DNA from: a virus
Lineage: Duplodnaviria > Heunggongvirae > Uroviricota > Caudoviricetes
Strand: one strand, 5' to 3'
Virus record (IMG/VR): IMGVR_UViG_3300045007_000064
Span: 124,236-171,128 of that record
Length of the DNA stretch: 46,893 bases
Every line of letters begins with the position of its first letter. The stretch's first letter is position 1. Below are positions 4,352 through 44,418 of this stretch, in pieces. Made by a program: the position numbers and the translations under genes. Under the pieces are notes generated by a model. It was not told the origin of the DNA. It was given only the letters and a program-made list of their open reading frames with translations, and did not search any database.

Positions 4352-7300
4352 GCTTGTCGACCTCCCATTCGGCTACTAGGTCTAGGTTTACGGTCTCGGG
4401 GAAGGTGACGGCATCGGGCACATTCACCTTGAAGGAATCGATCTTGCGAACGATAACATCGGCACGAGGCTCTAGGGCCGTGCCCAGGCGCATCTTCATG
4501 AACGGGTCATCCAGAATGAGCGCACACCAGTCACCCGGGCGGTAGCTTCCCACGAGGGGCGCGATAGAACCATTCAGGGAGACATTCAGGGTGGTGTACG
4601 GCGGTGCGGCCTCGGAGAGGTATCGCTTGGCGAAAGCATAAAGCTCGTTCTTGTCGTCCACACCGCTGACGTTTTCAGTAGCATCCAGCAGAGGCCACTT
4701 ACGTCCGTTGCGTCCCTTCAGAAGGTCCTCAGCGGAGGCGACTCCGATGTTCGGACCGGCTTCTGGACCAAGGTCAGTCTCACCCGCGGCGAAGAATCGA
4801 GTTGCAGCCTCTTCCGCGGATTCATCGATGGATACCTCCGTGATGTTTCCACCGGGGTACTCGAAGATGAGCTTGTCCGCACCGTAGCGACTGATAGGTG
4901 CGACTTCACCTGGTGCCGGAGGGTTGGGGAAGTTGATCGGAAGGAGAACGAAGGTCTTGACAAACTTGTTCTGCTCGCGATCATACGAGCAGTCGATGCG
5001 GTACTCGAATCCATTGATGTTGTCGGAATACTCGTCCAGAGCTTCACCAACAGTCTTCAGCTCGAAACCTCGATACGCAATCGGTTCGATGTTGATTCCT
5101 GTGTAGTCACGGGATTCAAACTGCACACTGAGATTAGCGTTGCCTGGGTAGGGTCCGAAGCTGCTGATGATCACGACTGGACGTACGGTTGCCGTTCCTC
5201 GATGAAGAACGTTCTCCGAAGAGTACGCCGGAATCGTCTTCGATACGGTGAAGGTGTTCGAGTTGGTGTCCACAGACCAAATGTTGTACGTCCCGTTGTA
5301 GGTGTTCGTGACGCTCGCCAGGGACAGCTTGTCGCCCGTCTGCTCCAATACGCTCGCACTGTATCCGGTGAGGCTGAACGTGAAATGCGTGCTCGTAGGT
5401 ACACCTGTTACCGTACGGGTACCGTTGAAGATAGAAGCGCGCTGAGCGGTGAGAGATGTCGGCTCCGTCACTGCGTATGGGAGCGACTGGGCGATGGTGA
5501 AGCTGTTTGAGGTAACAGCCGTGATCGCCCGCGAACCGCTGTGTAGTGAAGTGTTCGTGACGGTGGCCTGAACATCACCCTCGGCCTTAGCCAGGGGCAC
5601 ATCAGTGGAAGCTATGTTGGCACCAGATCGCGCGTAGCTGATAGTGTTCTGCCCCACGGAAGACACCGTGTAGGTACCATTGAACACAGAGGGTCCCATA
5701 ATCTTGAAGTTCGTACCGCTACCCGAAAGGGAGGGCTGGTCGTTTCCCCCACGGAAGAACTCGACATACTTAGTCCCTACGCCGGTCACGGTGTAGCTGC
5801 CGTTGTAGAAGCTTTCCGGAACGGTGATTGTTCCCGAAGCCTTGGAGAGAGGAACAGTCATCGGTACAGGCGGCTTCTTGCCCTTAGCCGCGGCCTGCTT
5901 GTTGGCTGTGACATGGCGCTCGTCTACCCGATACATGACTCGGGTAGCCGTCACATCCGTGACCGCGGCCTCCGAGCTGTTAAATGGCGTACCGATACCA
6001 GCGATCTTGATCTTCTGCCCGATAAGGATGTTGTGTGGTGCAGAGGTCGTAAGGGTGACAAGACCGTTGACCGCTTCCTTGCTGACGACCGTGTATCGAT
6101 CATCCAGACCGGCAATCGTTACCTGGTCGTTCAGCTTCAGGTTGTGCGCCCCGGGCGTGCTGATCCGAGCGGTACCATTCACAATACGACGGCTCGCAAC
6201 CGGGTAGGAGTCATACAGATCGTTCACGGAGAAAGTCATGCCCGCGGTCAAGTTGTGCGGGTACTGTGTCGTGATCGTGGCTACGCTGGACGTGAGCTGC
6301 TTCTTCACGATCTTGTGTGAGTCGAGGCCCTGGATATCCACCACGTTACCGACGCGGAGGTTGTGCGGACGCGCTGTCGTGAAGCGAGTAGTTGTGGTGG
6401 TCGAGGTCTTGGACGTGATATTGGTGGTGTCCGAGAGACCCGTAATCGAGACGGTATCACCTACGGCCAATCCGTGGGCCTTCTCTGTTCGAATGGTTGC
6501 GCGATTATTCGGAGCGTCCAATGCCTTCTCCGAAATGGAGAGAGTGCGATTGACCTCCGCCACGGTCACCGAATTTCCTACGGTAAAGGGGATCGGTGAA
6601 CCTAGCTCGAATGTCAGATACCCGGGAGTGGTCGGGTCCACTCGAACCACGCTCACAGAGGTCGAGCCTACTGTCGCGCGAGCATTCGGTAGGGTCGTCT
6701 GCGGCACGCTAAGCGTGGAGTAGGTCTGGTAACGGAATGTAGTAGGCGTAGGAACGTCCAGGATGACCCAGGTGCCGCTAAACGCCTCGTAGGCATCCCC
6801 GAGTACCATCGTCACGTGCTGTCCCTTAGAGAGGCCGTGAGCGCTCGTAGACGTAACTGTAGCCAATCCAGAGGACATCTGAACAGCCGTGATTGTGGCT
6901 TCGGTGATTGAGACGTCGCTCAGCGCGAAGCGTCCACCATTGCGGTACACCAAATGAGTTGGGCTAGGGGTGTCGGTGATTTCGAACTCACCGTCAAACT
7001 GCGGGCCAACGTCCCGAACCTGGATAGCCTGCCCCGGGGCGATGTTGTGGGGCTTCGAGGTCTGGAGGATGCTGTACCCGTCCAGAGACTCCTTCTTGAT
7101 GATGTCGAAATCGTAAGAGATTCCAGGCTCGATGTAGACGTTCGGGAAATCCGTACCTACAAAGTCGTTAAAGGTAGAGTCAATGAGCGAGCGAATGTAG
7201 TCGAACGCGTCTAGACGCACCGTAACGGTGACATCGGTGTAGTCACCGCGAGGAAGCGGACGCGAAGCCGTACCCTCCACGATGACCAGGGGATAGGTGA

Positions 7301-34900: not shown

Positions 34901-37306
34901 GCTACCATCCGGGTACTGCTCGACCTGAATGGGTTCGCCCTCGTATCCGTTCTGACGGAATCGCTCAGTAAGCTCGTCTACAAACTCCTCGTTGATTCCC
35001 GAAACCATACGGATGTTGTCCAGGTCAGCCACCGGACGAGTCTCGTCTGTGATCGGACCCTGGATGCGGTCTAGCTGCTCTTCGCGACGGCGTGCAACTT
35101 CCGGGGCCTCCGGACGGGTGCCAGCCTCGTCGGTCGCGTAGTGCGAGCGAGAACCCTGGGTGTCGAAGTGGTCACCGCGGGTGACGTAGCCGGTCGGTTC
35201 ACCAGAGCCGTCACGCTTTAGCTGCTCCCACTTTCCGGCTTCGTTCTTGCGGTAGATACGCTTATCACCGCTCTCGTCATGCTCCTCAGCGATGAGGGAG
35301 CCTGCCGGAGCGTTCTTGACTTCTTCCTTGGTCGGAGCCAGCTTGTTCGCGGCCCACGCCGAAGGATCAACCTCCGGCTCCGCGTCTGCCTCCGCCTCCG
35401 GGGCGTCAGCCTGTGGGGCAGCGTCGGACTCGTTGCGTTCCTTCTGACGGGCTTCAAGCTCCTGGAACTGCTCCTCCAGGTCGGCAACCTCGTCAAAGAG
35501 TCGGTCGATGTCCTCCTGAGCCTTCTGGTCCTCTTCCTCGGAGGTCGAGGCGTTCAGACGGCCCAGTGCGTCCGACTCGCGCTTCTGCGCATCACGAAGA
35601 CGCTCCGCGACCTCATTGATACGAGCGTCCAGGTCCTCGTTGTCTGGAGCAGAATCCGGCGTCTCCTCAGGAGCGGTGCCGCGCTCACGAGCGAGACGAG
35701 CGTCTAGTGCATCCGCCTGCTCATTGAGCGCGATGATGTCCTTGGGGTCCCCGGCTACGTCCATAGCCGCCTGCACCTTGGCGCGGCGGTCCTTCAGGTC
35801 CTCTACTGAGCCTGGGGCTGCTGCGGGTTCGCTGGGGCGCTCGTCTGCGGCGCGGGGGCTGTCTCCGGCGTTGTCGGCTGGGGCGTCTCCTGCGGGGCGG
35901 GCTGGCTCGGGGTCGGGGGTGTCTGAGACGGCTGCTGGCCCCCCATCTTCGCTACGAGGCTCTGGGCGAGCTGCGTCATCTGCTCCGGGGTTAGCTGGCT
36001 GAGATTCGACGGCATCGGGATTACGGTCTTCGGCATTGGGGGCCTCCGCGGAAGTGTCACCTTCCAGGTTGGGGTTTACGTCGGGGGAATTGGGGTCCAC
36101 GGCCTTGTCAGACACCGATACCTCGGAGCCATTCTGGAGGTCGAGAACCGTGCTCTGACCCAGGCCACCAGCCTGCGCCTTCGCGTTGTCTAGAGTGTCA
36201 GCAGAGTTGTAGATTTCTGCCGTGTTGTTGTCGGTGTCCACAACCAGGCGTGCGCCGCCCTTACCGAGCTGTTCCTTCTCGGCGGTCATGAAGTTCGCCA
36301 GGCCCTCGGGGGTAATGTCGTTGGTGCGCTTACCGGTGGGTACGAGGAATCCCTCAGGAGAAACCTCAAACGTGCTGGTGTCGATGGCACCCGTGGAGGC
36401 CTGCGGAGCCTGGGCGGTCTCAGCAGCAGGCGCAGCCTTGCGCGCAGCCAGAGCCTCGTCCGAGTCGTTGCCTTCGGGGTCGTACGGCTGGCCCTCGGCT
36501 TCGAGTTCCTTCTTCAAGGTCTCGTTCGCCGTCATGGCGGTCTGCTTGGCTCCCAGCGGGGCCTTCTCGTTCAGGAGGGTACGCTCGTTCGCCTTGATCT
36601 GCTCGATCTTGGAATCACGGTCACGATTTGCCAGAACCTCATCGTTGTTCTGCGCCAGACCGGTGTAAGCGGAGTCCCCAGACTCCTCGCGCTGGAGGTC
36701 AACGTCGGAGACCTTCTTGAACGCCTCAGCCATCGAACGCTGCGGCTCAGCCTGACCGGGGTTGGCGCGGTGGTCCTCTAGGAGAACGTTCTCGTCGTTT
36801 CCACCGAAGTGAACACGGAAGTCACCGTCGTCGGTCTGGATGACCTTCTTGCCGCCGTAGGTTCCCGGCTGAGCAACCCAGCCCTCGGGAGCCGGGTGAA
36901 CCTGAAGCTCATTGATGTTAGGGATGTCCTCGTCCGCACGCTCGCCTACGGCCTGACCGTCAGCGTTACGTCCGAGCTGAATGCCGCGCTCAGCGAGCTG
37001 GGCCTCAGAGAGGTTGGCTACGAACTCCTGCGCGTTGGCGGAGGTGACATCATAGAAGCCGTCAGGCAGGCCGTTCGGGTCCTTGGCTACGAATACCTGT
37101 CCGGTGTTTGCGTCCTTGGCACCGACGAACGAGCCGATTACCGAACGTGCCGCGCCGTCAGCACCGCGCACCTTGAACTTGACGCCGCGACCCATCTCGA
37201 TCCAGCGACCGAAGCGGTCACGCCACTGGAGTCGGGCGCGAGCGGATCGGGCAGCGCGGCTGTTGCCTCCTGCGGCAACGAGTGCGGAAAGAGAAGTGTC
37301 GAACAC
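31907..37306 (-). CDS. giant acidic head-associated protein with ParB/Srx-like domain
   Basis: 1799-aa ORF directly after portal; GAGGA RBS with GTG start; coiled coils and a DGNHR motif. Confidence 0.8.
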   Translation of the reverse strand: MFDTSLSALVAAGGNSRAARSARARLQWRDRFGRWIEMGRGVKFKVRGADGAARSVIGSFVGAKDANTGQVFVAKDPNGLPDGFYDVTSANAQEFVANLSEAQLAERGIQLGRNADGQAVGERADEDIPNINELQVHPAPEGWVAQPGTYGGKKVIQTDDGDFRVHFGGNDENVLLEDHRANPGQAEPQRSMAEAFKKVSDVDLQREESGDSAYTGLAQNNDEVLANRDRDSKIEQIKANERTLLNEKAPLGAKQTAMTANETLKKELEAEGQPYDPEGNDSDEALAARKAAPAAETAQAPQASTGAIDTSTFEVSPEGFLVPTGKRTNDITPEGLANFMTAEKEQLGKGGARLVVDTDNNTAEIYNSADTLDNAKAQAGGLGQSTVLDLQNGSEVSVSDKAVDPNSPDVNPNLEGDTSAEAPNAEDRNPDAVESQPANPGADDAARPEPRSEDGGPAAVSDTPDPEPARPAGDAPADNAGDSPRAADERPSEPAAAPGSVEDLKDRRAKVQAAMDVAGDPKDIIALNEQADALDARLARERGTAPEETPDSAPDNEDLDARINEVAERLRDAQKRESDALGRLNASTSEEEDQKAQEDIDRLFDEVADLEEQFQELEARQKERNESDAAPQADAPEAEADAEPEVDPSAWAANKLAPTKEEVKNAPAGSLIAEEHDESGDKRIYRKNEAGKWEQLKRDGSGEPTGYVTRGDHFDTQGSRSHYATDEAGTRPEAPEVARRREEQLDRIQGPITDETRPVADLDNIRMVSGINEEFVDELTERFRQNGYEGEPIQVEQYPDGSEMITDGNHRAEAAKRAGLTEVPVRVYDSSEEGRRAASTAIVEAERRKEEPAAAPAPERPEYQEPGNTDAAATARAELEAIDAEIENQISAAELATDPQVEAEHLSRVRTLERQRKIQENALNRALGNEPMDFNGDLGWNMRDRENRGSLPEAPEPVEAPETAPEAPEAVQDAPEADTPAILDDSLDAQIAQARMRLEQTEAERRQMLIESDDWDSEEYDELEARRDALEDELRTLERQSEAEAEMAALEAQSDVEAAPEPETFEETAQRVLVDAARVDETLSDIDPREGTGGVFDQKDDPRNVSSGHENRIEALKAKMQGKELTPDEQRVITEALNSGMLSDNQLSALDNALDGKPNRANTTTVARPETDQPEYLNTADVEVVNAERDDPDFVFDEDLTWRRVQEEYLNEDHPEARLLENGDLVVDSVTNKGKRYDAIVRRTQKNRFMAYVMETDEVGNRRAKRISNSEWHSYEALENRITTARKLINGSSPAGSITRRKDQPTENLGTQGFPADDFLGDIGNPDAPLPETGDEKFDVLLSAVATHIRNGDADLAGIEDHLRQIDPGAKAIDTIMQAVIGRAQDTYRPNGTNPWQMYDGETAEIGMEFDWTDWHQELDWWLPNGQLNPKRRANPSYGQVQRGRVVGYVKENTDGKGHTYGDHVWVQLQNSDGTWSNWVKRSAQTLRRAEPGSALGLPFFSKREEWRTSPEALARRFRVPNAAADEPVVTKERPRRDLPQSRRLRFTPRGSLSGYSNVPVPKDQPTIAGMIQSGEITPRIGRASEARPGMMIVRMDDDGNQHVDSIIRVENMGDGGYRIHAARPDGRGYADVDSFVVPGDADIALWNAPAIRGPETPEPKNTRRGDLVEFDRNGVVENGVVAFDDDNGNLTVVTPGNETIDILESNIRPASYQDITREERTDVLESLDNTDMPQLIRNLIMRGILDPGLSRLRYEQILETLGSFGPKGPTITELDALLDMMGASDQDRADVRDYLDTP
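34820..35032 (-). other. ParB/sulfiredoxin-like domain within the 1799-aa protein
   Basis: VDELTERFRQNGYEGEPIQV...ITDGNHRAEAAKRAGLTEVPVRV. Confidence 0.75.
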
Positions 37307-37337
37307 TATGCGTCCTCAATTTTGGGGCGTGGAATAG

Positions 37338-37370
37338 ACTCCCCCTATCGTACCAGACGACAGGGGGAGT
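37338..37370 (-). promoter_or_regulatory. hairpin with embedded extended -10 (TGGTACGAT, 37347-37355)
   Basis: 14-bp stem (one G-U), 5-nt loop after the portal stop; weak U tract. Confidence 0.5.
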
Positions 37371-37377
37371 GATGGAC

Positions 37378-39117
37378 TTACTGTCCGGGTTCTGCGAGCG
37401 GGAATGGCGGGGCGTCATCCCCAGGAGCAACCGGCTGCTCCGGTTCAGGCATGATGTCGCCCACTGTGGGCTGCATCGGGTCCTGCGGCGGTGCGTCTGA
37501 AGGCTGTGACGTGTCCAGCGGGGCGTTGGGGTCAGCAGGTACCGCACCCGTTCCTCCGTTGAGAATGTCGTTGACCTGTCCCGGAACCGGGGCAACCGAG
37601 GTAGCCTGTCCTGCACCGCGAGCGGCGTCGATGACATCGGGGGCCAGAACACGAAGCAGGGCCTCGGTGAGCTGCGGGTCCAGTCCACCCTTCTCCAGCA
37701 GCATGCGGAGCACAAGCTCCTTGCCGGTGGGAGCATCCTGATCTGCGAAGCCGTGGGCACGACGCCAGGTGTCACCCGAGATTGCCATCTTCTCATATCC
37801 GGAGTCGGCGTCAGCCGCGCGGTCATTGCGGGTCGCAACAGCGCTGGCGTCATACCAGACAGCGATACGGGATACGTCAGCCTGGCTCCATCCGTCGTTG
37901 ATGAGGGTGGGGCGCAGGTACATCGTGGTGAAGGCGTCAGCCAGCAGGAGCAGCATCGGCTCAATGTGGGCCTTGTACAGCGACTCGTCAATCTGGACGG
38001 CGTTGTTGTACTTCACATTTGCCAGACCGGTAACGGTGTCCTTGGGAACATCGAGACCCTGGAGGATACGCTCTAGAACGCGGTCAGCACGCGCAACCAT
38101 GGCGTCATCAAACGGACGGTCGAACGAGATGTGCTTCAGGTCCTTACCCAGCTCGGCAGGGCCGCGGATCAGAAGAGGCACAACGCTGGCGGCGCTGGAC
38201 TCATCCTCGATGGGCGTGGACATCGCCAGGAGAAGTTCTTCCTGGAACTGGTCGGCTACGTCCTCCGGCGTGGGGGCGTCCTCGTCCTGCTCTTCGAATA
38301 GACCGGAATCCGCCTCGGCGGAAGTAGACAAGCCGTCCGGAACGTACAGGATACCGGCATTCAGACGCGAACGGTGCGACCCGCGGAAGGTGCGGTCCAG
38401 AAGCAGAAGCTCCTCGCACAGCGCCAGCAGACCGATCATGTTCGTGTCCGGGTCCTCGCTGAAGCGGGGGTGCGGACGCCAAATGCGTCCCATGAACGCA
38501 TCGGACGGCAGCGGGATCGCACCCTTGGGCAGTGCACCGCCGCCGTTGCCAGGCTTGATCGCGCGGCGCGGGTAGATAGCGTAGTTGCCCTTGGCGTCAA
38601 CCTTCAGCTCGTCTACCGAGCGAATGTCCCAGCTCTCCGGCAGGCCCTGACCGATGCGCTCGGGCACCTGGACCAGGTAGCACTCACCGGCAACGGCGAG
38701 GTTCAGCGCGGCGTCACGGAGAAGTCCTGCCTGTCCGCCGAAGGCGGAGTCCAGACGCTCTAGTGCACGGCGAGCGGCGTCTGCAAGTTCTGCGTCAACC
38801 TTCTCAGACAGCGCCAAAGGTACGGGAGACTCAGCCGGGTCTTCCACGACCGCCACATATAGGCGAATTCGTGAAACAACGCTTGCCACGAGCTGGAAGG
38901 CGTACTTGACCTCGGAAATGGCGTCGTAGTACTCCCACGCCGCCTGCTGGACAGCAACGATCTGCCCGCCCTGCGCCTGACGGAACAGCTCCGCCTCGGT
39001 CTTGTCCTTGAGACTCACGCGCGCAGCAGCAGCGGTCATGCCTCGTACGGAGTTATACGGTACGGGCGCAACCGGCTGCGTGCTCGCTGTCTCGCGGCGG
39101 AAGATGTTGCCTGCCAT
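37378..39117 (-). CDS. portal protein
   Basis: 579 aa from ATG 39117 (TAATG overlap); AWEYYDAISEVKYA, GECYLV, WRPHPRF, ILQGLDVPK patterns of actinophage portals. Confidence 0.88.
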   Translation of the reverse strand: MAGNIFRRETASTQPVAPVPYNSVRGMTAAAARVSLKDKTEAELFRQAQGGQIVAVQQAAWEYYDAISEVKYAFQLVASVVSRIRLYVAVVEDPAESPVPLALSEKVDAELADAARRALERLDSAFGGQAGLLRDAALNLAVAGECYLVQVPERIGQGLPESWDIRSVDELKVDAKGNYAIYPRRAIKPGNGGGALPKGAIPLPSDAFMGRIWRPHPRFSEDPDTNMIGLLALCEELLLLDRTFRGSHRSRLNAGILYVPDGLSTSAEADSGLFEEQDEDAPTPEDVADQFQEELLLAMSTPIEDESSAASVVPLLIRGPAELGKDLKHISFDRPFDDAMVARADRVLERILQGLDVPKDTVTGLANVKYNNAVQIDESLYKAHIEPMLLLLADAFTTMYLRPTLINDGWSQADVSRIAVWYDASAVATRNDRAADADSGYEKMAISGDTWRRAHGFADQDAPTGKELVLRMLLEKGGLDPQLTEALLRVLAPDVIDAARGAGQATSVAPVPGQVNDILNGGTGAVPADPNAPLDTSQPSDAPPQDPMQPTVGDIMPEPEQPVAPGDDAPPFPLAEPGQ

Positions 39118-39392
39118 TATCCTACCTTCTGGTAAATGAGGCCTGTTACAGCCGATCCCGCTAGGGGAAGTCCAGCTACCATCATACCAGTAGGTGAAAC
39201 TACGTACAGAATAGCGAGAGGAATCGCTACCCAGAATGACATACACCACGGGCAGCCGAGTAGATATGCGAGCTTTCCACCAGGCTTGACCTTGGAGTAC
39301 GCCCAGTCACGCGGCCCATCCAGGATTTCGTCCTCGATGATGAGCCGCGTGGCTCGATAAACGGCGAGCAGAAATACGATGAAGCGGATCAT
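39117..39392 (-). CDS. membrane protein (DUF1360-like)
   Basis: LAVYRATRLI.ED.I...CPWCMSFWVA with hydrophobic helices. Confidence 0.7.
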   Translation of the reverse strand: MIRFIVFLLAVYRATRLIIEDEILDGPRDWAYSKVKPGGKLAYLLGCPWCMSFWVAIPLAILYVVSPTGMMVAGLPLAGSAVTGLIYQKVG

Positions 39393-40168
39393 AGCTTCCA
39401 GGGCCAGTTTCCGTGAATCTCGGTCTTCTCCAGGCCCGAGTCGTAGTAGTGATCTAGAAGCGCTCGGACGTAGTTGTCGTGGAGGTTCATCCGGTTCAAA
39501 ACCATGCTCGCCTCGCGGAGCCGGTACTGTAGCGGGTGGCGCTTCAGCGCACGATGCAGCTTCTTCAGCATCTTGGTCTTGCGCGGGGTGGTCGTCACGA
39601 TGACGCGAGGTCGATCACCAGTTCGGACCGCGGTGAGGAGGTTATCCCAGGCGTCGTTTACATCCTTTGACTTTGCACGACGCCACGAAGCAACCTCATC
39701 TGCCCACGCGAAATCAGCACCGACTCCCCGAATAGCGTCCGGTTCCTCCGAGGAAACGCAGAAAGCAACGGAACCGTTAGGCCACTCCAGGAGGCGCAGA
39801 CTGGGCTTGTATGTTGGGGCATCAGGGTTATGCAGTCCGTAGACGCCGAAGATTCCAGATTCTCCCTCCACCAGAACCTCGCGCACATCCGCTGCGGTAC
39901 GCGCAACCAGAAGAAGCCGGGACCCGGGGTTCTCTTCCGCGAACTTGATCGCCTCCTCGGCTCCGGTACGGGTCTTACCCGAACCGCGGCCTGCCGCGTA
40001 AATCCACACACGCCAGAGAGAATCCTGGGGCGGAATCTGGTCAGGGCGGCGCTCGGCCTCCCACTTCTCCCGGCCCTTCAGGCTCTCGATCTGGAGAAGC
40101 TGCTGGTCGCGGTCCTCTCCGGGCGGCATGCTCTTGACGGTTTCTTTCAGTGATCCTTTGTAGAACAT
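39389..40168 (-). CDS. terminase large-subunit ATPase-only paralog A
   Basis: 259 aa from ATG 40168 (GGAAGGA RBS, TGATG overlap); GRGSGKT, FAWADE, TTTP; aligns to TerL N-domain; no nuclease domain. Confidence 0.8.
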   Translation of the reverse strand: MFYKGSLKETVKSMPPGEDRDQQLLQIESLKGREKWEAERRPDQIPPQDSLWRVWIYAAGRGSGKTRTGAEEAIKFAEENPGSRLLLVARTAADVREVLVEGESGIFGVYGLHNPDAPTYKPSLRLLEWPNGSVAFCVSSEEPDAIRGVGADFAWADEVASWRRAKSKDVNDAWDNLLTAVRTGDRPRVIVTTTPRKTKMLKKLHRALKRHPLQYRLREASMVLNRMNLHDNYVRALLDHYYDSGLEKTEIHGNWPWKL

Positions 40169-40758
40169 CAGAACGTCCTTCCGTCTCCTGCTCGGGAGAC
40201 GATTGTGTCGGGGTGTAGCTTTGTTGGCTGCGTAAACAGGTACTTCTCCGCCATGGGGTATTCCTTGGCGATTTCGGCGGCATCGAAAACTTCGTCTGCC
40301 CATACATAGTCGAACATCATTCCACGGGCGGCTCCCCGAAGGAAGGCGTCCTCGGACATGCCCCGCAACGAGCGCTTGCTGCTGCGGTCGCGAATCGATA
40401 CAGCCCGCTCTACTCCATCGATTCTGTCGTAGTCAAAATGTCCAGACCACAACTCCGCGGTGTTCATGAAACGCTTGAAGGACAGGTCCATCTCGTACCC
40501 GCCTCCGCTGAAGATGCACAAAACGTTGGCTAGGTTGAAGAACTTGTTCCACGCCCAATACTCGCCCGCATAGCTCTTACCGCTATTAGGCGGAGCGACA
40601 ATCGTCCAGTACTTCCAATCGGAAGATGCAGGTTCGATCTGGAATGGGTAGGCGTTCAGTTCCCAGCTATAGTTCCACTCGTCATCATCGTAGAAGGCGC
40701 GGCGAGCTGAGCGTTCCGGCTCGGGGAGCGCTTCAATCTGCTGACGGAGAGTCTTCAT
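40168..40758 (-). CDS. divergent terminase ATPase-like paralog B
   Basis: 196 aa; YPFQ, APPNSGKS (Walker A), FDYVWADE (Walker B); N-terminus LRQQIEALPEPE...WNYSW resembles TerL QISLLPPDE...WDWSLW. Confidence 0.65.
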   Translation of the reverse strand: MKTLRQQIEALPEPERSARRAFYDDDEWNYSWELNAYPFQIEPASSDWKYWTIVAPPNSGKSYAGEYWAWNKFFNLANVLCIFSGGGYEMDLSFKRFMNTAELWSGHFDYDRIDGVERAVSIRDRSSKRSLRGMSEDAFLRGAARGMMFDYVWADEVFDAAEIAKEYPMAEKYLFTQPTKLHPDTIVSRAGDGRTF

Positions 40759-40954
40759 TCTCGTCTTCCCGTAGTCGCTTCAACTGATCCAGACTGGACT
40801 GGGGGTTCCGAGGCTTTTCAGCTAGCTTCTTTGTCCAGTACTCGATTTCCTCTCGGAGGAGCGTTCCTGTCAGGGGAATAACCCGCTCACCAGCCTCCAG
40901 AGTGACCTCGAAGGGCGGCCCAATATGCAGCCCTCCCTCTTCTACACTAGGCAT
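40733..40954 (-). CDS. 73-aa hypothetical protein
   Basis: ATG 40954 overlaps the upstream stop; fills the gap in a coupled gene series. Confidence 0.5.
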   Translation of the reverse strand: MPSVEEGGLHIGPPFEVTLEAGERVIPLTGTLLREEIEYWTKKLAEKPRNPQSSLDQLKRLREDENEDSPSAD

Positions 40955-41168
40955 GATCCGTGTCATCTCCTGGGCAGTAGCAAATCCGCGGCATCGGCAG
41001 AGGGTTGTCCTCATCGGTAATAGGGGTAGACATGGCAAGCAGGAGCTGATCCTGAAACTCTTCCTCTGTCGAGACAGGCTCATCCGGATTCTCACGGGCG
41101 CTCTTCGGGATGTGGAGCACACCCGCGTCTGCGATCTGTTGCTCGGTGAACTTGTAGATTCTAAGCAT
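40947..41168 (-). CDS. 73-aa portal-fragment protein (clip-like segment)
   Basis: AGVLHIP...FQDQLLLAMSTPITDE matches portal AGILYVP...FQEELLLAMSTPIEDE; ATG overlaps the upstream stop. Confidence 0.7.
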   Translation of the reverse strand: MLRIYKFTEQQIADAGVLHIPKSARENPDEPVSTEEEFQDQLLLAMSTPITDEDNPLPMPRICYCPGDDTDHA

Positions 41169-41538
41169 CTTCGGGTCCCGGGTCCTTGCTCGATCCCATG
41201 ATCTTGAATGGACGCCAGCTCCGCAGCCGCGATCCGCAGCCACAGGAGGCGTCCTTACGCCAGGCGAGCTTCTTGCCCGAGACGGTTGTCACGTACGAAT
41301 CGATGTGTACGCTGCCCTTGTAGTGCGTGGTGGGGTCAATCTCCTCGGAGAATACGACCTGTGGCCCCGCTACATCGTCCACCGCAACGGTCACTCGGTT
41401 TCCGGATACAACAACCCGGGTGATCGCCAGGTGCGCGGCATCCGGCGTCGGCGGACGGCTCTTCAGCTCTTCCACCGCCACAGGGAAGTCGGCAGCCGTA
41501 ATCACCAGCGTAGCTGGGAATGTGTCTTCGCGAATCAA
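41161..41538 (-). CDS. hypothetical protein with CGCG motif
   Basis: TTG start with AAGGAGAG RBS, 4-nt overlap with the HTH gene. Confidence 0.7.
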   Translation of the reverse strand: MIREDTFPATLVITAADFPVAVEELKSRPPTPDAAHLAITRVVVSGNRVTVAVDDVAGPQVVFSEEIDPTTHYKGSVHIDSYVTTVSGKKLAWRKDASCGCGSRLRSWRPFKIMGSSKDPGPEDA

Positions 41539-42032
41539 CTTACTCTCCTTGCCATTGCGCGGTAGCTGACGTTCGCGGCGTCCGCGAGGTCAGCGATGGT
41601 TACGCGCTCGTCATGGTGCAGTCTAACACAAAGCTCGGTCAATTCCCTATTCGACTTTGCCGAGGCGTGTCCCGGCTTCATCGTGGCGCGGTACTTGCGG
41701 GCGCTGGGAGCCAGCTCCTTGATCCGTGTAGCCTCGGCTGTCGTGAGCGGGCGTCGGGGCTTCTTCGGAGTGCTGGCGGGGGTCTGGAGCGTTGGGATAG
41801 GTGTAGTTGGCAGATCAGTATACGCGGACGCAATGGGAATCGGTGAATTGATCCAGTAACGAATCGTGGATCGTGCCCGAGGCGGGTCAAACGACTCCCC
41901 GATACTCCGGAGTGTCCACCCCGCCTGGTACAGCATCTTCGCTCGCGCGAATAGCTCGTACCCGGTAAGGTTCTGTAGCAGTTCTGCTTCGTAGGAGGGC
42001 AACGACTGCCCTCGCGCGGATCGGCGTGTCAT
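41535..42032 (-). CDS. helix-turn-helix DNA-binding protein (two HTH-like units; small terminase not excluded)
   Basis: GWTLRSIGESF..PRARSTIRYW and VTIADLADAANVSYRAMARR. Confidence 0.65.
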   Translation of the reverse strand: MTRRSARGQSLPSYEAELLQNLTGYELFARAKMLYQAGWTLRSIGESFDPPRARSTIRYWINSPIPIASAYTDLPTTPIPTLQTPASTPKKPRRPLTTAEATRIKELAPSARKYRATMKPGHASAKSNRELTELCVRLHHDERVTIADLADAANVSYRAMARRVS

Positions 42033-44359
42033 CGCTTCTTCATTCCTCCAATACGGAATCCTCCGAATCCCGTGGCACGGGGTCCGGTTCGCTGGGTGCG
42101 CTGGCGGAGGGCATTGTTGTTGCCAAGGTTGATGGTTCGGTTAGCCATGCCCTTCGCACGAATGGGGCCGCTCCAGAATCCCTTAGGCGGGGCAATCAGG
42201 AGGGCGGTGAGTGCGTGAACGAGCGCGTCCACGCGGTCAGGGGACTTGCGAGTGACCTCAGGCTCCCAGGTCACCATCTGCTCCTCCAGGTCAACGTGCC
42301 GTCCAACGTGGACAACACGACCCTGCTGATACGCGAGCACGACCGGCTCGGCGCGGAGCTTCTTTCCGACCTTCGAGTGGACCTCGTAGACCGGAATGTT
42401 CGGGTCGATCTGGTGGATGGCGTTCTTCACCATCGCTCCACCCTGGTTTGTCTCCGCTACAATCGGGGCACCCCACTTGTAGTGCATGTCCACAACCTTC
42501 TGCGTCCACACCTGGGGCGAACCCTGCACCGATGCGTCTTCCAGAACCCACGCTCGGCGCTTGTAGAGGTCGGAATCGGCGGTGGCGGAGACCACAACGA
42601 TTCCACACTCGTCACCAGGCTCGTCCGCGACCGTGGGGTCCACACCGATGACGCGCAGAGGCGTGTAAGGCGGCAGCTCCAAGTTGTGCGGGATCATATT
42701 GTCGTCCCACAGCGCGCCCTCGACCGCCTCCAGCATCTCACCGTTCAGCTCCTGCATAGCCAGACGGGTACCGCCGTACACTCCGGTGATCGCGTCCAGG
42801 TACGCGCCCGCCAGGTTACCGGCATTGTCGTACGTAGAACCGCGAGTGACCCAGATTCGACCGGCACCTTCGACATCCTTGCGCCGATCCGGGTTCTTCT
42901 TGTGCTCCGCGATCAGGTCGAACAACACCTTGACGCGCTTAGGGGTGGTGGTGGCGAGAATCTGGGGGTTGTTTCCCAGACGAGTCGCGATACGGAGGTT
43001 CTCCCACGCAGAAAGCTCGCCTTCCTTGGTCGGCTGACGCCACGCGGCTACCTCGTCGCCCCAGGCGTAGTGCGCCTGCACACCACGAAGCGAGTCAGGC
43101 TCGTCTGCGGAGGTGCAGAAGGCCCAGGAGCCATTGGGCCAGATCAGACGACGGATGGACGGGCGGTATTCGGGGCGCTCCGAGGGTGGGGAGACGTTGA
43201 TGATACCGGAATTGTGGGTCTTGACGTACGTATTGTGGATCAAGAACGTGTTATCGGGCGAATCAACCGCGATGCAGCGTACGGGGACACTCTCAACCGG
43301 TGTAATCGACTGAATCGCGCGCAGAGCGCCCTTCTTGGAGTAGTGCGTGACTGTCCAGGAGTCGATTCGGCCCTCACGCTCGACAACTCGGGTCCATTCT
43401 CCGGTAGTGTACCCAAGTGAGGACGCTAGACGGCGGATATTCGCCCGAATCTGGGTCGTATTGGTGCCAGGAATCTCCGATTCCTCCCCATACGCCTGTC
43501 GAGCGTCAACGAGGCCCTTCAACACGGCCTCGCGGACCTTCGTGGGTGCCCAGAAGTAGTCCTCGGGGATTCGGCGGGTCTCCGCGTTGTGCTCCGAGAA
43601 TTCAGAGCGCAGCGGGCGCTTCCCGAGGAGGTATCCGACGTTGTAGGGGGTGTATCGGAGCTGGATATCCTCTTCACCCTGGAGTTCGATAGGCTCGATG
43701 TAGTATCGGCGGTCCAAATCCTTCATGATTTCTTCTGTCGTCATCACGAAGGTCTTCTTGGACAGGCGACCCGTCCCCCAGTGCCCGTCACGGCGGCGAA
43801 CCGCCCACTTGTGGTTCGCGTCTGCGATGATCGGGGTATCTTCACCCGCGACCTTGACAGCGTAGCAGGGGCGGTTGTAGAGTACAGGGAAAGCTTCGGT
43901 GACCTTAGCGGGCTTGCCGTCTCCGCCGACAACGAGGTCACCCTTCTTCAGCTTGCCGATGGGGGTGAATCCTGTAGGACTAATAGGGCTGGCTACGGGG
44001 GTGTCGAGCGCCAGGGCCTCACCTTCAACGATAACCTCTCGCACGTCAGCCGCGGTACGGGCAACGAGGAGGAATCGCAAGGGTCCCTGGCTAGTCTCTC
44101 GCGCCTTCTCGCGAATCCACTCAGCCGCCATGCGTGTCTTACCGAAACCACGACCGGCGAGTGCGAGGCCTACGTCCCAGGAGTCGTCTCGGGGCGGTAC
44201 CTGCGCAGGGCGGCTCCAAAGAGACCAGTCCCAACGGAGCTGTTCTGGGTCGAACCCCGCGAGTGCTTCTTCCGCCTCGTCGGGCGGGAGCAAGGAGATT
44301 TGCTCCATGATCGACATCGACGCGGGGTCGAGGAGGGAAGTGTTCGGAAACTCAGACAT
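42029..44359 (-). CDS. terL: terminase large subunit with intein (507 aa after splicing)
   Basis: GRGFGKT, YAWGDE, TTTP; nuclease domain VIGVDPT, DECGIVV, AETNQGG, PDRVDAL. Confidence 0.95.
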   Translation of the reverse strand: MSEFPNTSLLDPASMSIMEQISLLPPDEAEEALAGFDPEQLRWDWSLWSRPAQVPPRDDSWDVGLALAGRGFGKTRMAAEWIREKARETSQGPLRFLLVARTAADVREVIVEGEALALDTPVASPISPTGFTPIGKLKKGDLVVGGDGKPAKVTEAFPVLYNRPCYAVKVAGEDTPIIADANHKWAVRRRDGHWGTGRLSKKTFVMTTEEIMKDLDRRYYIEPIELQGEEDIQLRYTPYNVGYLLGKRPLRSEFSEHNAETRRIPEDYFWAPTKVREAVLKGLVDARQAYGEESEIPGTNTTQIRANIRRLASSLGYTTGEWTRVVEREGRIDSWTVTHYSKKGALRAIQSITPVESVPVRCIAVDSPDNTFLIHNTYVKTHNSGIINVSPPSERPEYRPSIRRLIWPNGSWAFCTSADEPDSLRGVQAHYAWGDEVAAWRQPTKEGELSAWENLRIATRLGNNPQILATTTPKRVKVLFDLIAEHKKNPDRRKDVEGAGRIWVTRGSTYDNAGNLAGAYLDAITGVYGGTRLAMQELNGEMLEAVEGALWDDNMIPHNLELPPYTPLRVIGVDPTVADEPGDECGIVVVSATADSDLYKRRAWVLEDASVQGSPQVWTQKVVDMHYKWGAPIVAETNQGGAMVKNAIHQIDPNIPVYEVHSKVGKKLRAEPVVLAYQQGRVVHVGRHVDLEEQMVTWEPEVTRKSPDRVDALVHALTALLIAPPKGFWSGPIRAKGMANRTINLGNNNALRQRTQRTGPRATGFGGFRIGGMKKR
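43211..44017 (-). mobile_element. class 3 intein (269 aa) with degenerate LAGLIDADG endonuclease
   Basis: Starts Ala (ALALDTP), ends THN before Ser; W (NHKW), C (VRCIAV), T (KTHN) triplet; joined exteins IVEGE-SGII match paralog VLVEGESGIF. Confidence 0.9.
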
Positions 44360-44368
44360 GATGCTTCC

Positions 44369-44377
44369 ATTGTATCA
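44369..44377 (-). promoter_or_regulatory. extended -10 promoter for terminase (TGATACAAT)
   Basis: TGn-TACAAT 9 nt upstream of the terL ATG. Confidence 0.55.
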
Positions 44378-44389
44378 GTCTTGTACTAA

Positions 44390-44418
44390 GTGACTTTTTG
44401 GAACTTTGCTGGTACCCT
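44390..44418 (+). promoter_or_regulatory. rightward promoter, likely leaderless
   Basis: GTGACT-N17-TACCCT with TG extension; ATG 44425 begins 7 nt after the -10. Confidence 0.55.

Follow-up and report, generated by a model that had tools for sequence, protein, structure and literature searches.

Introduction

Copies of the ATPase domain of the large terminase subunit (TerL) that stand alone as separate genes recur in unrelated phages, including coliphage 186 (gene W), T4 (gene vs.8) and several jumbo phages, and a recent Avs2 paper asks explicitly what their role is. The described arrangement most like the one reported here is that of coliphage 186, in which W (AAC34147) lies between the terminase gene Orf12 and the portal gene, in the same operon, and encodes a 248-aa stand-alone Terminase_6N domain (69.8 bits) that is 37% identical to the ATPase part of that phage's own TerL. 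T4 vs.8 is an uncharacterised homologue of the T4 TerL ATPase domain that has Walker motifs A and B (PMC13601566). Here we describe a cassette of four small genes (pf73, x73, T196 and T259; Table 1) between the terL and portal genes in a 46,893-nt stretch of viral DNA, hereafter the window, which covers positions 124,236 to 171,128 of virus record IMGVR_UViG_3300045007_000064. Two of these genes encode TerL-type ATPase domains that lack a nuclease, and a third encodes a copy of an internal segment of the portal protein.

The window genes share the layout of 186 W, with ATPase-only genes on the same strand within the terL-portal interval, and T259, like W, has no nuclease domain. In contrast to the window, coliphage 186 has a single gene of this kind; a second paralog, a portal-derived gene and a TerL intein are all missing there. 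Orthology of T259 with W was considered and rejected, as BLASTP gave no significant alignment. Since the two proteins share no sequence similarity, they are analogous, independent inventions. Four short TerL-like ATPases, from Erwinia phage Ea35-70 (179 aa), Yersinia phage fHe-Yen9-04 (185 aa), Agrobacterium phage Atu_ph07 (244 aa) and Rhodococcus phage Whack (206 aa), are among the best structural matches of T196 in BFVD; they are similar to it in size but only 10-13% identical in sequence. The Atu_ph07 match is labelled "terminase large subunit" and the Whack match "AAA-ATPase".

Zooman and Big4, with 81% nucleotide identity, are the window's nearest sequenced relatives, together with A3Wally, Cece and Pumpernickel; all are Microbacterium phages of 186-195 kb. 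Their GenBank records already describe orthologues of the cassette genes as terminase pieces (Zooman gp64/65, Big4 gp68/69, Cece gp63/64, A3Wally gp78-80 and Pumpernickel gp78) and propose no role for them. We found no literature on this phage group or on its terminase genes. What is new here is the presence of two or three paralog families side by side, allele swapping combined with multiple origins, and the portal-clip mini-gene. An earlier reading of the window, made from its letters and open reading frames (ORFs) and hereafter called the sequence-only reading, stated that it was aware of no described cassette with mimics of both terminase and portal. For ATPase-only paralogs this is too strong, given 186 W between terL and portal; for the portal-clip mini-gene it stands, since our literature search found no description of one.

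Results

T259 is a complete TerL ATPase domain that stops at the hinge to the nuclease. It matches Pfam Terminase_6N (PF03237) with 55.7 bits (E 7e-15), above the gathering cut-off of 22, and also matches phrog_2. Its alignment to the window's own TerL falls into two blocks (41% identity over 121 aa, E 1e-18; 38% over 156 aa, E 2e-30) that flank the TerL intein and end at the ATPase/nuclease hinge. The protein has the N-terminal helices, the Q motif, Walker A (GRGSGKT), the VEGESG segment, Walker B with the catalytic Glu (WADE), the TTTP coupling motif and the lid, and it closes at the hinge with a conserved G-x-WPWK tail. The nuclease domain (Terminase_6C, PF17289) is absent; only the 776-aa TerL matches that family.

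T259, Zooman gp65, Cece gp64 and metagenomic members of 253-278 aa together form what we call family A. All ATPase motifs are invariant in nine members at 39-62% identity, the invariant positions comprising the Q motif, GRGxGKT, the Arg of DVRE, EGxSG, WPNG, LRG, the Walker B Asp-Glu, the Pro of TTTP and the WPW-centred tail. Because every catalytic residue is invariant, T259 is probably a working ATPase that hydrolyses ATP. A 304-aa ORF starting at 40303 was rejected as the gene; the true start is the ATG at 40168, which has one base in common with the T196 stop codon and is backed by a GGAAGGA ribosome-binding site and by the annotation of relatives. Recent gene conversion between terL and T259, or a retained intein homing site, was also rejected: the site region has 62% DNA identity, and its conservation is at the amino-acid level, with differences at nearly every third codon position. 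The predicted complex of T259 with pf73 scored 0.15, which is under the mark for any verdict.

T196 is a minimal TerL-type ATPase core. By sequence it is a weak match, both to Terminase_6N (18.8 bits, under the 22-bit cut-off) and to the N-terminus of the window's TerL (26% over 70 aa, E 5e-5). Its AlphaFold2 (AF2) model has a predicted local distance difference test score (pLDDT) of 88.6, and the best Foldseek matches of this model are the TerL ATPase domains of P74-26 (E 4e-6), Sf6, D6E and T4 gp17. The kinship of T196 to terminase is thus a matter of predicted fold and not of Pfam score. The protein keeps the conserved N-terminal segment, the Q motif, a P-loop (APPNSGKS), Walker B (WADE) and a C-terminal KLHPDT-x-x-SR, with a hypervariable centre (about residues 85-150), and it ends before the lid; the lid, the VEGESG segment and the nuclease domain are absent. 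We call this group family B (17 members, 181-206 aa). The Q motif, the P-loop Gly and the Walker B Asp are invariant in it, and a few members lack the Walker A Lys or the catalytic Glu. Both paralogs share the ASCE fold and the motifs of solved TerL ATPase domains (P74-26, 4ZNK/4ZNL; Sf6, 4IDH; D6E, 5OE8; T4 gp17, 2O0H). In contrast to T259 and T196, real TerL enzymes carry an RNase H-like nuclease domain.

GenBank labels the T196 orthologues Zooman gp64 (L001:4297-4881), Cece gp63 (L003:4119-4697) and A3Wally gp79 (L002:4179-4811) "terminase large subunit, nuclease domain" or "helicase domain". These labels are contradicted by the motifs and the predicted fold, which indicate an ATPase core with no nuclease.

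The portal-derived gene, pf73, has only one significant match in the window, namely the portal protein (BLASTP, 34% over 67 aa, E 6e-8). It covers portal residues ~243-320, which begin where stem helix alpha-3 ends, take in the segment that, following established portal architecture, we take to be the clip, and stop just before the second stem helix. Neither the single portal sequence nor a profile of it gave a match among solved structures; the AF2 model of the portal matches the portals of a gene transfer agent (GTA) and of HK97 with Z of 15-17 and provides the order of secondary-structure elements in the segment. In pf73 this order is strand, shortened acidic loop, helix, strand. The protein aligns to the strand-helix-strand between the two stem helices of the HK97 (8CEZ) and GTA (6TOA) portals, from which it differs in the shortened acidic loop and an added Cys/His tail. 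An alignment of five portals with five pf73 family members shows that the invariant residues of the portal clip are retained, and 34 columns are invariant among four members of the family. The complete wing-stem-clip-crown fold, with which a portal protein makes a 12-mer channel, is lacking. At 73 aa, and with wing, stem and crown all missing, pf73 is unable to build such a channel.

Genes of the pf73 type occur in the window, in A3Wally and its twin record, in L008 and in two more short contigs, and a shortened form occurs in Cece; the orthologues in the GenBank records of relatives are annotated as "hypothetical". The tail of the family, P-R-I-C-Y-C-P-G-D-D-x-D-H (window 40947-40990), is conserved and is absent from the portal. 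It could be a small metal-binding or redox motif.

The fourth gene, x73, resembles nothing in Pfam or elsewhere in the 171-kb genome, and the window's ORFs show no similarity to it either, the best E being 0.07 for an unrelated short frame. A3Wally gp77, Zooman gp63 and an 83-aa ORF of L008 correspond to it in part. The gene is coupled to pf73 and T196, both of which it overlaps, and with dN/dS (the ratio of nonsynonymous to synonymous substitution rates) of 0.43-0.64 it is less constrained than the other cassette genes. The sequence-only reading had proposed four small genes, overlapping each other and their neighbours, within the terL-portal operon: two nuclease-less copies of the TerL ATPase domain, one copy of an internal portal segment and one weak echo of a tape-measure motif. 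The overlaps are real (1-26 nt), and three of the four assignments hold; for T259 they rest on the Terminase_6N score and the two-block alignment, for T196 on a sequence match that is weak and a model that is confident, and for pf73 on the match to the portal. The tape-measure echo in x73 was not found again.

Orthologues of the cassette genes are intact, with none frameshifted, and their lengths are kept in about 15 related genomes. Between Zooman and Big4, dN/dS is 0.025 for family A, close to the values for TerL (0.029) and portal (0.032). Family B has a value of about 0.2, and pf73 compared with A3Wally gp76 gives 0.125. With intact orthologues and dN/dS far below 1, the genes T259, T196 and pf73 are by these comparisons functional and under purifying selection, not decaying. 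Decay had been expected to show as dN/dS near 1 or as frameshifted orthologues; what we see is dN/dS of 0.025-0.25 and intact frames.

The paralogs turn over far more quickly than the genes around them. Between the window and Zooman, TerL is 86% identical, portal 87% and the DUF1360 protein 89%, compared with 55% for T196 and 46% for T259. Across Zooman, Big4, L009 and L010 the flanking genes are 78-93% identical to those of the window, T196 55-59% and T259 45-61%. Zooman and Big4 are themselves 98-100% identical in seven proteins and 78% identical in the T196 orthologue. This lower figure stems from a ~300-bp patch in mid-gene (L001 versus L011, locus ~4400-4700) with 70-77% nucleotide identity. 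In the patch, dS is 0.93, compared with 0.3-0.4 in the flanks of the same gene, the raised dS values being saturated pairwise estimates, and dN/dS is 0.25. This pattern indicates an imported allele segment rather than local positive selection.

A maximum-likelihood tree places the resident TerLs in a tight clade and family A in a separate clade (95/91) with branches several-fold longer. The paralog of L013 is nested among foreign full-length TerLs (99/99), and the types found in L012 and A3Wally gp78 form a third group. Because the L013 paralog nests in foreign TerLs, apart from the family A clade, nuclease-less terminase domains entered the locus at least twice.

The cassette occupies a defined slot between h125 and the DUF1360 gene. 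We annotated 80 loci fetched from the wider portal clade, together with loci found earlier, with our own profiles; 81 loci had both h125 and DUF1360. No paralogs are present in 48 loci with an intein-less TerL or in 25 in which TerL lies outside the locus, and in these 73 of 81 loci h125 generally abuts DUF1360 (median gap -27 nt). Paralogs are present in six loci with an intein-bearing TerL (one or two each) and in L025, in which TerL lies outside the locus (two paralogs). The remaining locus, L026, is a close relative with the same intein-bearing TerL and has no cassette. Because the slot is without paralogs in 73 of 81 loci and in L026, the cassette is accessory and not a core part of the motor. 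We dropped the idea that at least one paralog is indispensable after finding L026 and the intein-less relatives without paralogs.

Occupancy varies among the paralog-bearing genomes. Both families are present in the window, Zooman, Big4, Cece, L006, L009, L010, L024 and L025, family B only in Pumpernickel and L023, and family A only in L015; L012 has one paralog of the third type, A3Wally has three paralogs, and L013 has a HIT-family gene together with a paralog of another type. In 50,697 GenBank phage records, family B and pf73 turned up in these Microbacterium phages and no others. By these comparisons, the cassette is an optional, horizontally shuffled insertion at the h125-DUF1360 junction, confined to a single subclade of Microbacterium-type phages of 170-195 kb. 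In L017 and L019 the junction has other small genes and no paralogs, one of these genes being BubE-like (E2-like; L017:4142-4408), and in L013 the HIT-family hydrolase gene (L013:523-867) stands beside the paralog. This suggests that the junction is a general hotspot for accessory genes.

Discussion

What is the functional significance of truncated copies of both packaging-motor components? We favour a role as mimics in conflict, directed at a host sensor or a rival element, and give this reading a probability of roughly 40%. It is preferred over the alternatives because the surfaces of the cassette proteins turn over quickly beside a near-constant TerL and portal, copy number varies, some copies are foreign, and the slot is one for accessory genes. 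The cassette proteins would be produced late in infection alongside the genuine TerL and portal and would serve as stand-ins that bind nucleotide and the partners of TerL or portal and are unable to cut DNA or build a channel. Family B proteins, a few of which lack the Walker lysine or catalytic glutamate, would have binding as their only mode of action. Because the cassette surfaces change quickly while TerL and portal are nearly constant, the partner would most likely be a variable, non-self factor, either a sensor of the host that recognises the portal or the fold of the TerL ATPase, or the packaging proteins that a rival phage or satellite makes in the same cell.

A more specific version of the mimic reading is that the cassette is a dedicated conflict module, in which mimics of both sides of the motor's docking interface, the TerL ATPase core and the portal clip, sequester TerL/portal sensors or poison the motors of rivals or satellites, and allele swapping keeps diversity. 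We put this forward tentatively. If it is true, the module would be the first protein-mimic counter-measure against sensors or users of the packaging motor, and mimics aimed at sensors or rivals would constitute a new class of counter-defence. SeAvs3 grips the TerL nuclease domain as well as the ATPase domain, so a nuclease-less copy might bind this sensor without activating it.

Several points weigh against a mimic role. Every catalytic residue of T259 is strictly conserved, which suggests a working ATPase and not a passive mimic. The raised dS values are saturated pairwise estimates, and some of the fast divergence could come from looser constraint on a helper that the phage's own motor can do without. 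TerL ATPase domains on their own are strong activators of EcAvs2 and Upx in E. coli assays, and T4 vs.8 is toxic with EcAvs2 (PMC13601566). By analogy with these assays, stand-alone ATPase paralogs may expose the phage rather than shield it. In the available part of the EVADES preprint, the anti-Avs proteins named are a DNA ligase and an Smf-like protein, with no TerL or portal mimics (bioRxiv 10.1101/2025.06.06.658234). The sequence-only reading had suggested that the cassette soaks up immune sensors without triggering them, poisons a competitor's motor or tunes the phage's own. A conflict or accessory role fits the evolutionary pattern seen here, with genes that are functional, optional, present in 0-3 copies, independently captured, patch-swapped and highly divergent. 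In contrast, a silent Avs decoy, which binds the sensor without triggering it, is doubtful because isolated TerL ATPase domains and vs.8 activate the sensors.

Next in rank after a mimic role comes tuning of the phage's own motor, which we regard as possible on present evidence. The ATPases would become part of the TerL ring, regulate it, or vie for the small terminase; the paralogs could, for instance, dilute nuclease domains during long headful packaging of ~190 kb, and the mini-clip could modulate TerL docking on the portal. The position of the genes inside the terL-portal operon with translational coupling fits such accessory subunits, as do the retention in T259 of all catalytic motifs and of the N-terminal segment shared with TerL, dN/dS values as low as that of TerL in the close Zooman-Big4 pair, the presence of at least one paralog in nearly all genomes of the subclade, and the analogous gene at the same place in coliphage 186. 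However, the motor works without paralogs, as the 73 empty loci and L026 attest, and the paralogs diverge far more than the TerL and portal that they would have to fit. Furthermore, one paralog comes from a foreign TerL lineage, and some members of family B have lost catalytic residues. If the paralogs nonetheless prove to be motor subunits, tailed phages would have hetero-oligomeric packaging motors.

An association with the intein invites a third explanation, which we consider improbable: intein-free ATPase copies could compensate for, or regulate, the unspliced TerL precursor. All paralog-bearing genomes with terL in the locus have the intein, and 48 of 48 intein-less loci have no paralog. 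However, the association lies within a single clade and counts as one event; L026 has the intein and no paralog; 186 W and T4 vs.8 exist without TerL inteins; and paralogs that lack a nuclease cannot replace TerL. The DNA around the intein site, conserved only at the amino-acid level with nearly every wobble position different, also argues against this link. Least likely are decaying remnants of tandem terL/portal duplications: the genes are truncated copies of neighbours and x73 is weakly constrained, but low dN/dS, frames and lengths that are intact across genomes saturated at synonymous sites, invariant catalytic motifs and the fact that the paralogs are no recent copies of the resident TerL effectively exclude decay for T259, T196 and pf73, three of the four genes.

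The clade is well suited to distinguishing a mimic role from motor tuning, since it includes relatives that can be cultured on non-pathogenic Microbacterium hosts and natural variants with 0, 1, 2 or 3 paralogs. Zooman and Big4 are near-isogenic; in the region compared, their proteins differ mainly in one paralog, and what looks like a natural allele swap could be put to experimental use. The extra portal-clip mini-gene is a hint that the copying concerns the docking interface between terminase and portal.

Genome context and flanking genes

The window makes up the right-hand end (46.9 kb) of a 171-kb viral contig, 89% complete, that comes from lake water. Pieces of the cassette region (window 37300-44400) were assembled with zero differences in four other lake-water metagenomes from separate studies, as short, low-depth contigs. 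Because these pieces are identical in four other metagenomes, the cassette sequence is no assembly artefact. The same phage genotype is widespread at low abundance. The 171-kb genome has no further terminase-like genes, and no NCBIfam family is matched by any cassette gene.

The minus-strand operon runs in the order TerL, HTH165, h125, pf73, x73, T196, T259, DUF1360, portal (Table 1). From TerL to portal, successive genes overlap at their starts and stops by 4, 4, 8, 8, 26, 1, 4 and 1 nt. Promoter- or terminator-like signals are no more frequent in the operon than in shuffled sequence.

Table 1. Positions of the genes of the packaging operon, and of the TerL intein, in the window
Feature	Position	Strand	Length	Description
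TerL	44359-42029	-	776 aa	Pfam Terminase_6N and Terminase_6C
TerL intein	43211-44017		269 aa	TerL residues 115-383
HTH165	42032-41535	-	165 aa	weak HTH_38 match
h125	41538-41161	-	125 aa	upstream edge of insertion slot
pf73	41168-40947	-	73 aa	portal-clip copy
x73	40954-40733	-	73 aa	alternative start at 40966
T196 (family B)	40758-40168	-	196 aa	minimal TerL-type ATPase core
T259 (family A)	40168-39389	-	259 aa	stand-alone TerL ATPase domain
DUF1360 membrane protein	39392-39117	-	91 aa	Pfam DUF1360; downstream edge of slot
Portal	39117-37378	-	579 aa	phrog_776 portal, E 1e-94

The TerL intein is inserted in the ATPase domain between VEGE and SG. By inspection it bears the signature of a class 3 intein: Ala1, H-K-W (block B Trp), R-C-I (block F Cys) and T-H-N followed by S (block G Thr, and a terminal His-Asn before the Ser). 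The same bounds and motifs are found at the same site in nine related TerLs. These features identify the intein as putatively class 3-type.

HTH165 and h125 are core genes of the wider clade, as judged from the 81 related loci, and lie side by side throughout it. HTH165, with its weak helix-turn-helix (HTH) match, probably binds DNA in the manner of a small terminase. In many intein-less relatives the gene directly upstream of terL encodes a further protein, of ~190 aa and weakly similar, with a faint HTH_23 match in L018, the one relative checked. Both HTH165 and the ~190-aa protein are candidates for the small terminase. The DUF1360 membrane protein stands immediately before the portal gene in every member of the wider clade, as an odd but constant companion.

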